Source: Deltaproteobacteria bacterium (GTDB lineage: Bacteria > Desulfobacterota > Desulfobacteria > Desulfobacterales > GCA-2748835). Taken from it: DNA of 64,000 nt. The notes beneath the pieces are model-generated. The model was not told where the DNA came from. It made no database searches and saw nothing but the letters and a program-made list of their open reading frames with translations. Below are positions 1,587-6,206 of the stretch, piece after piece. A program made the position numbers and the translations under genes. The first letter of the stretch is position 1. Every line of letters begins with the position of its first letter. Where the stretch lies: contig PDTL01000026.1 in assembly GCA_002748835.1 (NCBI GenBank), forward strand, positions 14,330-78,329, read 5' to 3'.

Positions 1587-2177
1587 ATGAACCGGAATCA
1601 TGGGGCAGATATGCCTGCTTCACTGCCGCGGCCGTCGTTAAACGACCTGCGCGGCCGTCAGTCAGTGCGCGCCACGTTCAAACTGACCAGCCGGGCCATT
1701 GATGCCATCCGTGTGGTCTCCGTTCACCTGGGAATCAAAAAAAAGTCGCTGTTTGATCACCTGATCGAGGATCCGGATGCGCTCTCCTCCATTGCCGACA
1801 CGGTGGACAGCGGCGATTTTTGCCAGCTGAAGCGGGTGCAGAAAACGTTTGTTCTGAGCCGCAGTACGCTGGATTTATTAGACCGGATCTCCAAGGGACG
1901 CAATACGCCCCGGGACGCGCTGGTCGAGTATTCCATTCGCAGGCTGCACGATATCATTGAAACAGAAAAGATTCGGCACCGCACGCGCAAAGCGCTTCTG
2001 GCAGAAGGGCACCCCCAGCTGATTCAGACGGAGCAGCTGTTCCGCGATGCCCTCGACCGTCTGGGGCCGGATGATCCGGTGACGCGGCATTTCCAGAGCC
2101 TTGCGGAATGCGCGCGTGCCACGTTTTCAGCCGTTGCTGACTATGTTGAAAAGGGCGAAGTGATCGAGTCTTTTTGA
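1587..2177 (+). CDS. Hypothetical protein with two ribbon-helix-helix-like motifs
   Basis: 196-aa ORF; internal repeats VRATFKLT..IDAIRVVSVHLGIKKKSLFDHLI and VQKTFVLS..LDLLDRISKGRNTPRDALVEYSI. Confidence 0.65.
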   Translation: MNRNHGADMPASLPRPSLNDLRGRQSVRATFKLTSRAIDAIRVVSVHLGIKKKSLFDHLIEDPDALSSIADTVDSGDFCQLKRVQKTFVLSRSTLDLLDRISKGRNTPRDALVEYSIRRLHDIIETEKIRHRTRKALLAEGHPQLIQTEQLFRDALDRLGPDDPVTRHFQSLAECARATFSAVADYVEKGEVIESF

Positions 2178-2207
2178 TTTGACCACCCTCCCATGAAACG
2201 GAGCTGT

Positions 2208-2495
2208 ATGATTGTTGGATACGGCCGGATGACGTTTCACCTGCATGGTGTCCGGTCTCTGAAAGAAAAGCGGAAAATTGTCAAAGCCCTTATCAGTCGG
2301 CTGCAGCGTCAGTTTAATGCGTCTGTGGCGGAAGTGGGTGACAATGACGTGCACCAGCGGGCTCAGATCGGGTTTTCGCTGGTGGGTAACGATGCCGGCG
2401 TGATCGATTCCAAAATGGACAAGTTTTTGAATATGGCAGAGAACCTTGGCATCGCGGAAATGACGGATGCGGAAACTGAGTTGATGACACTCTGA
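2208..2495 (+). CDS. DUF503/YlxP family protein
   Basis: MIVG...SLKEKR.IVK.LI..L...FN.SVAEV...D.HQRA.IG signature; start at ATG 2208 preferred over 2193. Confidence 0.9.
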   Translation: MIVGYGRMTFHLHGVRSLKEKRKIVKALISRLQRQFNASVAEVGDNDVHQRAQIGFSLVGNDAGVIDSKMDKFLNMAENLGIAEMTDAETELMTL

Positions 2496-2550
2496 CAGCG
2501 CAGCGGGTGAATCGCGGTTCTGAGAGGCAGTCAACCCGCGATTTCTCAAC

Positions 2551-2576
2551 AAAAAAGGCCGGAGGCAAACCCGGCC
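2551..2576 (-). terminator. Intrinsic terminator
   Basis: GGCCGG-8nt-CCGGCC stem followed by T6 on the minus strand. Confidence 0.75.
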
Positions 2577-2619
2577 GATTTTGAAGAGGAGAAAAAAATG
2601 AAAAAGTTATTAGGCTGAT
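2551..2619 (-). ncRNA. Candidate sigma54-dependent small RNA (~70 nt) with anti-Shine-Dalgarno seed
   Basis: Canonical -24/-12 promoter directly upstream, CU-rich body (CATTTTTTTCTCCTCTTC), GGCCGG/CCGGCC hairpin plus T6 at the 3' end. Confidence 0.6.
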
Positions 2620-2628
2620 TTTTGTTTT

Positions 2629-2645
2629 TGCAAATCATGTGCCAA
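2629..2645 (-). promoter_or_regulatory. sigma54 (-24/-12) promoter
   Basis: Minus strand TTGGCAC-ATGAT-TTGCA, exact GG-N10-GC spacing. Confidence 0.8.
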
Positions 2646-2736
2646 TCCGCTTCTGTTTTTTATATTTTATTTTTATTATTTATTTCAATATGTTGAGAAA
2701 TGAAGGCAAGGTCTGTTTTCCTGTGGTGATCAAAGG

Positions 2737-2919
2737 GGTTCATCATTTTGAACCGCCGGGCAGGGCTGGCTGGCAGAGATCACTGGAAACAGGGGCCATG
2801 ACCGGTAAAACGGGCTGATTGCTGATTCATAATTATGAATACGTGTGCGTCGCCAATCGGTAAGCAGTTTTTTAATCTTTTGATTTTAATATATATGTTG
2901 TAGTTCATTTTTTTGAACT
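2737..2919. promoter_or_regulatory. Three palindromic TTCA-N6-TGAA sites (putative activator enhancer sites)
   Basis: GGTTCA-TCATTT-TGAACC (2737-2754), ATTCA-TAATTA-TGAAT (2825-2840), AGTTCA-TTTTTT-TGAACT (2902-2919). Confidence 0.55.
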
Positions 2920-4287
2920 CACACGGATACCGTATTTTTTAATCTTTTGATTCAAACCACTTTTAGTGATCCCCAGGCGCTCGGCCGCATGGGACTGGAT
3001 CTGGTCGGCCGCATCCAGGGCCTGGAGAATCATTTCCTTTTCAACCGCCGCCAGGGTGGCGGTCAGGGTCTGGCCCGGACGAATGCCGGACAGGTGGAAT
3101 CCTTCGGCATCGGTCTGGCTGATCTGCAGGGGAAAATCCGCCGGTGTCAGCTGGGGGCCGGACGCAAGCACCATGGCCCGTTCCATGACATTTTCGAGTT
3201 CTCTTACATTCCCGGGCCAGGCATAGGCATAGATCAGTCGCCGGGCTTCCGGAGAAAGACCGGTAATCGGCGTGTTGCCGGCCCGTTCGCCTTCGTATTT
3301 GCGGATAAAATGCATGGCCAGCAGATGGAGGTCTTCGGACCGGCTCCGCAGGGGCGGCAGGTTCAGATGCACCACATTGAGGCGGTAAAACAGGTCTTCC
3401 CGGAACGTGCCCGCCGCCACATCATCGGCAAGATGACGGTTGGTGGCGGCAATGAGTCGAAAATCGACAGGAAGGGTCTTCACGCCGCCCACCCGCTCCA
3501 GATTCCGTTCCTGGAGCACGCGGAGCAGTTTTACCTGAAGGCTGCTGGAAAGCTCCCCGATTTCATCTAAAAACAGGGTGCCGCCGTCTGCCAGTTCAAA
3601 CCGGCCTTTTTTCAGGGTGGCCGCACCGGTGAACGCTCCTTTTTCGTGACCGAAGAGTTCGCTTTCAAGCAGGCTTTCGCTTAAGGCTGCGCAGTTCACG
3701 GCAACAAAGGGCTGCTCACGCCGGGGGCTGTTGAAGTGGATGGATTGGGCCACGAGCTCTTTACCGGTGCCGCTTTCCCCTTCAATGAGGATGGACGCGG
3801 ATGCCGGCGCCACTTTCCGGATGGTGTCAAACAGCAGCTGCATGGGCTGGCTTTTACCCACAATATTGTCAAAATGAAACTGGGACGAGACGGCATCACG
3901 GAGCCGCCGGTTTTCCCGGACCACCCGGGAAAGGTCCATGGCTTTTTCCACATGGATGATCAGGCTGTCGTTGTCAAAGGGTTTGAGGATATAGGTGTAG
4001 GCTCCCTTTTGCATGGCTTCCACGGCTTTTTCAATGGTGCCGTAGGCGGTCATGAGGATGACCGGTACGTCCGGAGCCAGTTCCTTCGCTTCCTCGAGCA
4101 GGGCAATGCCGTCCATGCCGGGCATTTTCATGTCCGTGAGAATGAGGTCGATGTCTGCCCGGGAGAGGATGTCCAGGGCGGCCCGTGCATCGTTTGCGGT
4201 CAGGGTTTCATACCCTTCTTCTTCAAGTACGGCGCTCAGGATCAGGGGGTAATTCTTTTCATCGTCAACAATGAGGATGGTGTCCAT
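2905..4287 (-). CDS. NtrC-family sigma54-dependent response regulator
   Basis: REC domain, GESGTGKE Walker A, GAFTGA loop, [15 protein letters not shown]-terminal Fis-type HTH. Confidence 0.95.
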
Positions 4288-4292
4288 GATGG

Positions 4293-5750
4293 CTATCCTT
4301 CGGCGATGGGCAGCTTGACCACCACCCGGGTGCCGCCGATCTGGCGATTCTGGATCTGGATGCTGCCCTGATGGGCATCGATGATGTTCCGGACAATCCC
4401 GAGGCCCAGTCCGGTTCCTTTGTCTTTGGTGGTGAAAAACGGATCCCAGATCTTTTCAACGAGTTCTTCGGGGATGCCGGTTCCCTGGTCTTCAAAACGG
4501 ATACGGACCGTGTCTGCATCGCAGGTGAGGTAAATCCCCACGGTCCCGCCGTCGGGCATGGCCTGCATGGCATTGAGCAGCAAATTCAGGAAGGCCTGGT
4601 AGAGCATATCCGTATCTGCCCATACGGGGGGCAGGGATTTTCGATTGCCGGATTCGGTGTGTTTCCGGATGGTATAGCCCTGGGTGTCGATGGTTGGGGC
4701 CAGAAATTTCAGGTTCTGCTCGATCACGGCGTCCACGTCGCAGTGGGTGCGGTTTGGTACTTGAGGACGGGCATAGTTGAGGAAATCCTGAATGATGGTG
4801 TCCAGCCGGGTAGCTTCGGTCACAATGATTTCCGGAATGGTGGATGCCGCATCCAGCCGTTTCATTTTTTTCTGGAGCAGCTCTGCGGAGCTGCGGATAA
4901 TCCCCAGGGGGTTGCGGATCTCATGGGAGATGCCGGCTGTCATTTCACCTAGGGCAGACAGATGTCGCGCTTTTGCCAGCTCTTCTTTCAGCTTGAGGCG
5001 TTCCTGGGCGCGGTTTTCAATAATGCGTTCTCCGCGCTTGACTGTATAGCGGAGCACCAGAAACAGGCCGCCCATGACCAGAATGCAGGTGCCGAGCACC
5101 AGCAGCTGGAGCCGGAAAATCTCCCGGTAATCATCAGACACATTTTCAACCACCTCCACCACCCCGAGTACAGGTCCTGAAATTTTGGACAGCGGCTGCT
5201 CGGCCCGGAGCGGGGCCAGGGTCACGATTCGGCTGTCCGCAGGGACACCGAACAGGATTTCCCAGAAATTGCCGGTCTGTACGAGAATGGTGGTCACCTC
5301 TCCCTTGACCGCCTTTCGATATCCGGAACCGCCCAGGTCGCGCATGCCGATCCGATCACGATCCATGCTGTAGGAGACAATGTTGGACAGGTCGTAGATG
5401 GTGACAGACTCTACCTTGAAACTGTGCAGGGTGGATCTGACCACCTTGTCCATGCGGGCAAACTGATCCGGTTCCCGCAGACGGATTTTCCCCAGGGTCA
5501 TGGCCACGGGAATCACGAACTGCATGAAGACCTGATGGTTCAGGTTCTCGATGAGCACCCGGGCATAATCTTCCCGGTTTTTGATGAGCATGCTGCGGAC
5601 CCAGTGCGTGTTGAGTCCGGAAAGAATCAGGGTGCCGATGAACATAACCGTCAGGCTGGTAAAGGTAAAGTACTTGACAAGCCTGAACGGCTTTAACTTT
5701 TCTTCCGTGGCGTTCGGTGAGGGCTGTGACGGAGGTAGGGATGTATTCAT
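4293..5750 (-). CDS. Membrane sensor histidine kinase (cognate partner of the NtrC-type regulator)
   Basis: Two TM segments, H-box SHEIRNPL, N box, DxGxG, FFTTK.GTGLGL. Start set at ATG 5750 because the longer ORF runs through a tRNA. Confidence 0.92.
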
Positions 5751-5808
5751 AAACGATTCAATATCATTTATCAAAACCGTCCATGCCGGAAATGATGCGA
5801 TGAAAAAA

Positions 5809-5884
5809 TGGCTGGGGCGGAAGGATTCGAACCTTCGAATGCTGGAATCAAAATCCAGTGTCTTTGCCACTTGACGACGCCCCA
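5809..5884 (-). tRNA. tRNA-Gln(UUG)
   Basis: Cloverleaf, anticodon loop TTTTGAT, GGTTCGAATCC T-arm, encoded CCA. Confidence 0.95.
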
Positions 5885-6206
5885 GCAGGATTCCGGGGGA
5901 TGCCGGAAACTGACGTTTACGGGGGATCATCACCGGACGCGGGCCTGAAGGTTTACCGCTGCAGGCGGGGAATCCGGTTTATCCGCAGTTAATACAGCCG
6001 TTTTTACCATTGACGCTTCCGGTAGTCAATACCCTTGCCTGCGCTTTAAGGCAAAAAAGACCCTGTGTTCCGGTAAATCGTGGAATCGGGTTGACCGATC
6101 CCCTGTTTGGATGTATGGGCGTTCTTTCGTACGCGGTTCCGGAAAGGATTGCATACGGATAAAGAAAGGGATATTGTATTGATACACTATAAGGAAAGCA
6201 GGACAT

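Follow-up and report, generated by a model that had tools for sequence, protein, structure and literature searches.

A predicted sigma-54-dependent small RNA of Desulfobacterales and its likely place between a two-component system and a porin mRNA

In Enterobacteria, the trans-encoded small RNAs (sRNAs) MicF, MicC, MicA and RybB pair across the Shine-Dalgarno (SD) sequence and start codon of porin and other outer membrane protein (OMP) mRNAs and block their translation, and transcription of the MicF group is governed by envelope-sensing systems, such as EnvZ-OmpR in the case of micF. Other sRNAs are transcribed from sigma-54 promoters beside the genes of their activators, including CrcZ (CbrAB) and NrsZ (NtrBC) in Pseudomonas, Qrr1 (LuxO) in Vibrio, GlmY (GlrKR) in Escherichia coli and Pxr (nla19) in Myxococcus; to our knowledge, none of these has been reported to target the start region of a porin. 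The Desulfobacterales are major sulfate reducers in marine sediments, and we know of almost nothing on their RNA regulators. Here, a 64,000-nucleotide stretch from a member of this order (Deltaproteobacteria bacterium, assembly GCA_002748835.1, contig PDTL01000026.1, positions 14,330 to 78,329; hereafter the window) was analysed, in which the minus strand of positions 2551 to 2645 holds a sigma-54 promoter and a predicted sRNA behind it. Comparative analysis of the sequences suggests that this RNA probably belongs to a family of two-component-controlled, sigma-54-dependent, trans-acting sRNAs that silence a porin and occur across the Desulfobacterales.

Two published findings lie close to this locus. 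In Desulfovibrio vulgaris Hildenborough, non-coding RNAs downstream of the response regulator genes DVU0679 (Dv_sRNA2) and DVU0653 were described in 2011 and 2015; in these papers, their function is stated to be unknown and orthologues of DVU0679 are reported only from some Desulfovibrio species and two Firmicutes (PMC3333781, PMC4641369), and the word 'porin' does not occur in PMC4641369. The sRNA NcS25 of Burkholderia cenocepacia is conserved, and so is its target, an outer membrane porin mRNA that was both predicted and tested and is paired at the 5′-untranslated region and start; according to that paper, NcS25 has no sigma-54 motif upstream, is constitutively expressed and adjoins the porin gene (PMC10117139). 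A literature search, which left subscription journals mostly outside its range and excluded the D. vulgaris supplements, returned no description of the RNA reported here and none of an sRNA-porin link in Desulfobacterales.

On the minus strand of the window, the -24/-12 promoter TTGGCAC-ATGAT-TTGCA (2645..2629) is followed by about 45 nt of unstructured, U/C-rich sequence and then by an intrinsic terminator, consisting of the stem-loop GGCCGGGTTTGCCTCCGGCC (2576..2557) and the run TTTTTT (2556..2551), which was recognized by terminator scan, folding and pair covariation. Because C2630 was placed at position -12, transcription is predicted to start at about 2618/2619, and with the U-run as the 3′ end the predicted RNA (2551..2619, minus strand) is about 69 nt long. 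Its nucleotides 4-35 (2585..2616, minus strand) form a single-stranded seed that contains the anti-SD sequence CUCCUC and the anti-start triplet CAU and is antisense to positions -13 to +18 of the porin mRNA described below. Folding of a 76-nt RNA gave -21.3 kcal/mol (z = -4.3; 1 of 200 shuffled sequences was equally stable), with the first 32 nt unpaired. No open reading frame (ORF) of at least 40 amino acids (aa) was found on the minus strand between the promoter and the convergent DUF503 gene (2193-2495, plus strand), which the terminator hairpin could also serve. The plus-strand complement of the RNA body reads GAAGAGGAG-AAAAAAA-ATGAAAAAGTTATTAGGCTGA, that is, a ribosome-binding site (RBS) followed by MKKLLG*. 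A preliminary description of this stretch had pointed to the minus-strand TTGGCAC-N5-TTGCA, some 45 nt of U/C-rich sequence, a GC hairpin with T6, the lack of a protein gene behind the promoter and a complement reading as RBS plus MKKLL, and all of these are present at 2645-2551.

A single exact match to TGGCAC-N5-TTGCW is present in the 64 kb of the window; shuffled sequences held 0.10 on average, and 8 of 100 shuffles contained at least one match. Matches with one mismatch were not above chance in the window (2 found, 2.42 expected), and neither, taken alone, was the terminator in a scan of positions 2000-3200 (1 site against a shuffle mean of 1.6). Support for the predicted RNA rests on conservation and not on the motifs of this single window.

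A BLAST search with the 409-nt intergenic region against 40 relatives returned only matches of 17-37 nt, mostly to the RBS-like part, and no homologue; the family was therefore traced by synteny and later by a covariance model. The results showed that in 10 of 20 fetched loci carrying the kinase gene described below, a promoter TGGCAAG-N4-TTGCA lies 216-755 nt beyond the stop codon of the adjoining response regulator gene, on the same strand, and precedes the sequence AACCUAAUAAUUUCUUYAUCUGUUUUCCUCCUUAAUG and then a variable hairpin with a U-run. The window copy could be aligned to these synteny-found relatives (alignment A1), in which the promoter positions T4 G5 G6 C7 A8 ... T15 T16 G17 C18 are invariant. 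A covariance model, R1, was built on the family and its matches were counted at E <= 0.01. R1 scored the window copy at 80.7 bits (E = 1.2e-14) and matched in 115 of 150 Desulfobacterales genomes, most of them with a single copy, some with tandem copies and the richest with five; promoter, seed and terminator recur in these 115 genomes, conservation in relatives being one of the checks that the preliminary description had named. In alignment A2, made of 94 R1 matches (89 distinct sequences), the promoter is again conserved, the seed is the most conserved stretch of the RNA body, and all 13 pairs of the terminator stem show compensatory changes, with 95.9% of cells paired; none of 500 shuffles reached the observed values, and slid controls were 22-43% paired.

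A scan with a degenerate 29-nt pattern, run on one genome per species in 185,579 species, returned at least 120 stretches. Among the matches listed, 79 of 80 records bear Desulfobacterales-type or general deltaproteobacterial titles, the exception being one metagenome-assembled genome titled Nitrospinaceae; carriers include Desulfobacterales, Desulfobacteraceae, Desulfosarcina, Desulfonema magnum, Desulfatirhabdium, Desulfatibacillum and the Olavius Delta 1 and Delta 4 symbionts. In all 81 of 81 matches listed, the strand bearing the apparent RBS lacks an ORF of more than 60 aa, and the promoter is present in 77 of the 81. Comparison of window positions 2300-3000 with Rfam 15, which includes MicF, MicC, Qrr, GlmY, CrcZ and Pxr, gave best scores of 16-21 bits against thresholds of 40-111, and nothing was matched on the sRNA at E <= 0.1 in the loci of 20 relatives. 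From these comparisons, the locus very probably encodes a real small regulatory RNA that has not been described before and that is found across the Desulfobacterales.

Multiple or tandem copies of the sRNA gene were seen at L157 (NZ_CP061800.1, Desulfonema magnum; two in tandem), at G049:C1:4038525-4039136 and G098:C2:347375-350195, and in G089 (five copies) and G074 (four copies). In G021, the copy adjacent to the two-component genes pairs more weakly with the porin found there (-26.5 kcal/mol) than the unlinked copy does (-37.5 kcal/mol), and sRNA paralogues may serve different porins. A TPP riboswitch scoring above its gathering threshold (75.1 bits) lies at L083:239-347 (plus strand), about 1.2 kb from the sRNA of one relative, and is unrelated to it.

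The sRNA locus lies downstream of two genes of a two-component system on the same strand, context that is decisive for the reading of the locus and that the preliminary description had lacked, as it had lacked the conserved activator palindromes before the promoter. The nearer gene (2905..4287, minus strand) encodes an NtrC-type response regulator with a receiver domain, a sigma-54 AAA+ domain with an intact GAFTGA motif and a Fis-type helix-turn-helix (Pfam: Sigma54_activat, 4.6e-72; Response_reg, 5.5e-30; HTH_8, 1.6e-10), and is the predicted activator. The farther gene (4293..5933, minus strand; Pfam HisKA and HATPase_c) encodes a sensor histidine kinase, the true start of which is probably M62 at about 5750, with two hydrophobic segments around a periplasmic domain of about 170 aa; the ESM Atlas contains an sCache_3_2 look-alike of this periplasmic part (score 0.96), to be taken as no more than a lead. 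Orthologues of the kinase, with 55-63% identity from residue ~70 onward, were found in 254 of 301 genomes of the order, and in 20 of 20 fetched loci an orthologue of the regulator (62-66% identity) follows the kinase. In 14 of the 30 best loci the regulator gene lies within 1.5 kb upstream of the sRNA; the remaining sRNA copies, about half, are located elsewhere. The source assembly (G000; 2.43 Mb, 38 contigs, 85% complete) carries rpoN at C5:160185-160661 (204 bits). The 18-nt sequence TTTTTTAATCTTTTGATT (plus strand), which appeared as a self-hit in the BLAST search, is directly and exactly repeated at 2868-2885 and 2935-2952, 67 nt apart, one copy within the last codons of the regulator gene (…LNQKIKKY) and the other just beyond its stop codon; a small duplication affecting the 3′ end of this gene may have left this repeat.

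About 109 nt upstream of the promoter, the window contains the palindrome GGTTCATCATTTTGAACC (2737..2754), a predicted activator site, which is the only place in the source assembly within two mismatches of the family consensus GGTTCAAAATTTTGAACC; eight others stand at four mismatches. In 26 of 32 non-redundant regions upstream of sRNA promoters this palindrome was found, twice in 18 regions (at about -225 and -147) and once in 8. Another five regions carry an alternative palindrome, TTTCC-N4-6-GGAAA, mostly in two copies, and the sole region without any belongs to the second copy of a tandem sRNA pair. The GGTTCAAAATTTTGAACC palindrome also precedes sRNA copies that do not adjoin the regulator gene. 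A weaker palindrome in the window, ATTCATAATTATGAAT (2825..2840), with the core TTCA-N6-TGAA, was read by eye as a possible second site; it has five mismatches to the 18-mer consensus, and, if it is one, the spacing of the two sites is about 87 bp, compared with about 78 bp as a rule in relatives. Between these sites and the promoter, the minus strand shows an IHF-like core, CAACATATTGAA (2684..2695). Matches to YAA-N4-TTGAW / WTCAA-N4-TTR occur in 10 of the 32 upstream regions, mostly near -64 (shuffle mean 1.1, maximum 5), and the presence of an IHF site in this interval is put forward with moderate confidence.

The predicted sites change together with the protein that would read them. All five regulators of the loci with the alternative palindrome (L069, L071, L095, L097 and L103) have a recognition helix of the form GIG[KR]SGF[NS]KK, and the form ...KSGL[NS][WQM]K was found in 12 of 12 regulators of main-palindrome loci, in the regulator of the window and in 10 of 10 regulators without an sRNA downstream. 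The two palindromes, GGTTCAAAATTTTGAACC and GTTTCCA-N2-TGGAAAC, track the helices SGL-[NS]-[WQM]-K and SGF-[NS]-KK, respectively, and make up a natural specificity switch. More than any other finding, this joint change of site and helix argues for this regulator as the probable activator of the sRNA.

The distribution of the genes among genomes was tallied by hand. In G001-G149, which are related genomes and not independent samples, sRNA and kinase occur together in 110, the sRNA alone in 4, the kinase alone in 17 and neither in 18. A hand tally of adjacency between kinase and sRNA counted 31 adjacent and 42 non-adjacent cases; the latter number is too high, since at least one of these cases (G032) results from a contig break and has the regulator gene beside the sRNA. 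The two-component system appears to exist largely to drive one RNA. A rearranged locus was seen in G045, where the sRNA (C56:236691-236796, plus strand) stands beside and convergent to the kinase gene (237057-238499, minus strand), with no room for a regulator gene.

Targets in the source assembly were sought among 6052 candidate starts, taken from ORFs of at least 70 aa, with the first three start codons of each, and an SD-like motif upstream. The best duplex, at -39.9 kcal/mol, was formed with the gene C16:21075-22286; the next best reached -30.4 kcal/mol, and the 6052 starts averaged -13.6 kcal/mol (standard deviation 4.4). The duplex spans positions -13 to +18 of the mRNA, with 25 uninterrupted pairs running through GAGGAG, the spacer, the AUG and codons 2-4. 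The gene lies on another contig than the sRNA and encodes a protein of 403 aa with a signal peptide and a C-terminal Phe, which matches Pfam Porin_4 (42.4 bits, cut-off 27) and, in part, NCBIfam NF033939 DESULF_POR1, the Desulfovibrio-type homotrimeric porin (51.4 bits, cut-off 250). A search of the 150 genomes with the consensus target pattern, allowing up to three mismatches, found 43 places and a reversed control found 0; of these places, 39 correspond to the sRNA genes and four to starts of porin-like genes (G029, G077, G025 and G042). The four proteins have 362-422 aa and a signal-peptide-like N-terminus, those of G029, G077 and G025, which were read to their ends, finish in Phe, and three of the four match NF033939 below its cut-off; among the other target proteins, few are recognized by Pfam. 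A further five porin homologues (G116, G112, G135, G021 and G046) came from protein similarity alone. Their starts are alike, with an AGGAGG-type SD, a short A-rich spacer and ATGAA(A/G)…, as in AGGAGGAAGAACAG-ATGAAGAAATTATT of G116. No porin gene was found within 1.5 kb of the sRNA in any of 30 loci, a difference from the micF-ompC and ncS25 arrangements.

The match between each sRNA and the porin of its own genome was evaluated in an energy matrix of 12 sRNAs and 10 start regions from ten genomes, which is the reach of the sRNA-porin comparison. The cognate start ranked first for 7 of the 12 sRNAs and 2, 3, 6, 7 and 8 for the others, and each of the 12 cognate duplexes beat all 200 shuffled start regions. 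For the five homology-found porins, the cognate arrangement was the best of the 120 permutations, with either sRNA copy where there are two, and for the nine genomes other than G000 it was equalled or surpassed by 1 of 50,000 random permutations. Compensatory changes are seen in individual pairs. In G000, a CAG before the AUG is absent from both sRNA and porin; in G029, CCCAAUAA in the sRNA faces TTATTGG in the porin; in G042, CCGUAAA faces TTTACGG; and in G046 both partners share the AAAAAAAG spacer. The anti-start triplet itself varies among CAU, UAU and CAC. A U that replaces the C could still form a G-U wobble pair with the G of AUG, which would signal a constraint from RNA-RNA pairing and not from protein coding.

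Taken together, the comparisons fit a chain that would begin with the adjacent histidine kinase, which is expected to sense a periplasmic signal and, judging from its family, to phosphorylate the NtrC-type regulator. The regulator would bind one or more palindromes ahead of the sRNA promoter, where comparison reveals both the sites and their co-variation with the helix, and, probably assisted by an IHF-type bend, would activate sigma-54 RNA polymerase at TTGGCAC-N5-TTGCA. The RNA would end at the intrinsic terminator and, through its 5′ part, would pair over about 30 nt with the SD, start and first codons of the mRNA for a general outer membrane porin (C16:21075-22286), a complementarity that is seen in the sequences together with co-variation of the two partners. 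Such pairing would block loading of the 30S subunit on the porin mRNA and lower porin synthesis. A search for Hfq (PF17209) was negative in all 41 genomes G000-G040, which represent 41 families of the order and include the source assembly, and control genomes were positive. The ~30-nt duplex may therefore replace the chaperone; the porin sRNA, if working, acts without canonical Hfq, and the Desulfobacterales may be without canonical Hfq altogether.

Several points weigh against this chain. Porin repression is itself a prediction from sequence, the target in G000 was picked by its complementarity to the sRNA of the same genome, and the pattern that led to the four further start regions came from the sRNA consensus. 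Among the porins found by homology, the cognate start ranked 8th in G112, 6th for one sRNA of G021 (G021a), 3rd in G135 and 2nd in G116. The NF033939 matches of 7 of the 9 further targets or homologues reach 31-101 bits, all far below the cut-off, and porins diverge fast, a homologue of the G000 porin at E <= 1e-8 being present in 7 of 150 genomes, G000 included. As regards the RNA, its promoter and terminator are by themselves unremarkable in the window, as the shuffles above indicate, R1 contains the promoter, so that its matches are not purely RNA homology, and A2 was fitted to the model, which biases pair counts toward structure. As regards the activator, the kinase occurs without a detectable sRNA in 17 genomes and the sRNA without the kinase in 4, and about half of the sRNA copies do not adjoin the regulator gene. 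Finally, the 85% completeness of G000 means that additional targets or binding sites could be absent from the assembly.

The RNA could also be real and act broadly, its anti-SD/anti-AUGAAAAAG seed dampening many exported or OMP mRNAs, or SD sequences generally, instead of one porin, which we consider unlikely. CUCCUC in the seed is the same kind of sequence as the anti-SD of 16S rRNA, and signal-peptide-like ORFs are enriched among the best candidates of G000, with 8 in the top 40 and 19 in the top 100 versus 279 of 4411 overall, a baseline that is lowered by spurious ORFs. However, all other candidates fall short of the porin duplex by about 10 kcal/mol or more and pair mainly through SD and AUGAAA, and outside SD and AUG the seed co-varies with spacer and codons of the porin in G000, G029 and G042. 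This comparison also bears on what the preliminary description had proposed, namely a sigma-54-driven, terminator-ended, non-coding RNA that acts in trans, with an unstructured 5′ part antisense to RBS and start codon, and that represses a set of exported or OMP mRNAs through likeness to a generic signal-peptide start. The nature of the RNA and the orientation of its 5′ part are borne out by the comparative evidence, and silencing of an OMP mRNA is its most probable role, whereas a wider target set, though possible, goes beyond what the comparison supports, and the generic start has to be replaced by a near-perfect antisense of one porin start (-39.9 against -30.4 kcal/mol) that co-varies across genomes.

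Porin silencing in trans was also compared with explanations that dispense with it. A sigma-54 transcript might act in cis or without pairing, as an antisense RNA or terminator of the DUF503 gene, in feedback on the kinase-regulator operon or as a protein sponge. The RNA and the convergent DUF503 gene have the hairpin in common, and the sigma-54 sRNAs adjacent to activators include protein sponges such as CrcZ. Against this, the RNA ends short of the DUF503 stop codon (2495), neighbouring genes vary among relatives, about half of the copies show the same seed at sites away from the kinase-regulator operon, the U/C-rich seed lacks repeated GGA or CA-rich protein-binding motifs, and the start regions of kinase and regulator are outside the 40 best duplexes; such an action is very unlikely. 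Least credible of all, and with almost no weight in our assessment, is the absence of any functional RNA, in which case the plus strand would hold a tiny ORF or the decaying 5′ stub of a duplicated porin gene (RBS-MKKLLG*), with a fortuitous promoter and terminator. The preliminary description had itself named a stub with a full-length counterpart elsewhere as the case that would speak against an sRNA. A full-length gene with nearly the same start does exist, on contig C16, the plus strand does have a strong RBS and ATG, and ATG stands at that position in 69 of 89 distinct family members, 50 of the searched loci having come from a pattern that required ATR. The stub reading nevertheless fails, because a stub would not keep an opposite-strand promoter, activator sites and a co-varying terminator, which are retained in more than 100 genomes. 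The likeness to the porin gene also ends after about 30 nt, ATA and other non-start triplets are present in the family, and in the mini-ORF only MKKLLG, the antisense of the seed, is conserved. As a functional element in its own right, the plus-strand mini-ORF was rejected, since its length is not conserved (4-19 aa).

Other features of the window and its assembly were noted in passing. Between an S1-domain gene and the DUF503 gene lies an ORF of 196 aa (1587-2177, plus strand) for which Pfam gave no match at E <= 0.001. The strict sigma-54 motif TGGCA[CT]-N5-TTGC[AT] occurs at nine other places in G000 (C7:89159, C18:8873, C23:137043, C28:44686, C28:38530, C28:17322, C30:13661, C31:16784 and C38:16855), several of which have an apparent RBS and start codon within about 110 nt. 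Those at C23:137043 and C30:13661 precede a GC-rich, hairpin-like sequence with no obvious start and could belong to further sigma-54 RNAs.

When R1 was run on 146 genomes from other orders of the phylum, 12 of these genomes yielded weaker matches, of 37-57 bits. Six of the matches were aligned and show a sigma-54 promoter, a U/C-rich seed, anti-SD- or anti-start-like in several, and a terminator; in two of the six, a homologue of the regulator ends about 200 nt upstream (L280, 57% identity; L282, 53%). BLAST matches of these out-of-order RNAs to possible targets, in G393 (a secreted protein of 254 aa, 20/22 nt, E = 0.05) and G403, were too weak to call. With these weak matches, the upstream regulators and the seeds as its support, a bolder reading can be put forward tentatively, although we think it doubtful. 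The locus would be the type example of an old, phylum-wide circuit of two-component system, sigma-54 sRNA and porin, serving as the main post-transcriptional control of outer membrane permeability in Hfq-less Desulfobacterota. The sRNA gene would have begun as an inverted copy of the first ~30 nt of a porin gene and then tracked the porin start by compensatory change or gene conversion, regulator helix and site would have switched jointly at least once, and the Desulfovibrio sRNAs downstream of response regulators would have the same function.

The locus offers a complete predicted arc from a sensor kinase, through a sigma-54 activator with its DNA sites and specificity residues, to an sRNA and a porin start. 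It suggests that MicF-style porin control is possible without detectable Hfq, through a very long duplex, and it presents a natural case of three-way co-evolution, in which the activator helix changes with its site and the sRNA seed with the mRNA start region. The palindrome/helix switch of the activator would merit structural or biochemical study, model R1 could annotate more than 100 intergenic regions in public genomes, and a function is proposed for the Desulfovibrio sRNAs downstream of response regulators that were left unexplained in 2011 and 2015.

Compared with the D. vulgaris RNAs described at DVU0679 and DVU0653, the locus belongs to the same phylum and likewise places a sigma-54 sRNA gene just downstream of an NtrC-type two-component regulator with a conserved regulator site. 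The known likeness is one of architecture, and the present family differs in having a predicted target and mechanism and in being order-wide in Desulfobacterales. With CrcZ, NrsZ, Qrr1, GlmY and Pxr it shares the gene order of kinase, NtrC-type regulator and sRNA and a -24/-12 promoter with upstream activator sites, whereas RNA, seed and target are different, theirs being Hfq/Crc sequestration, quorum-sensing regulators or glmS. Predicted pairing over the SD and start codon of a porin is the common point with MicF, MicC, MicA and RybB. Unlike these, the present RNA has no Rfam match, a sigma-54 promoter with an enhancer-binding protein instead of a sigma-70 or sigma-E promoter, and a nearly perfect duplex of about 30 nt in an order where Hfq was found in 0 of 41 genomes. 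From NcS25 as described, it differs by its sigma-54 promoter and by its distance from any porin gene in the 30 loci. The predicted RNA joins two known modes of regulation, the sRNA driven by a two-component system and sigma-54 and the silencing of a porin at its start region.

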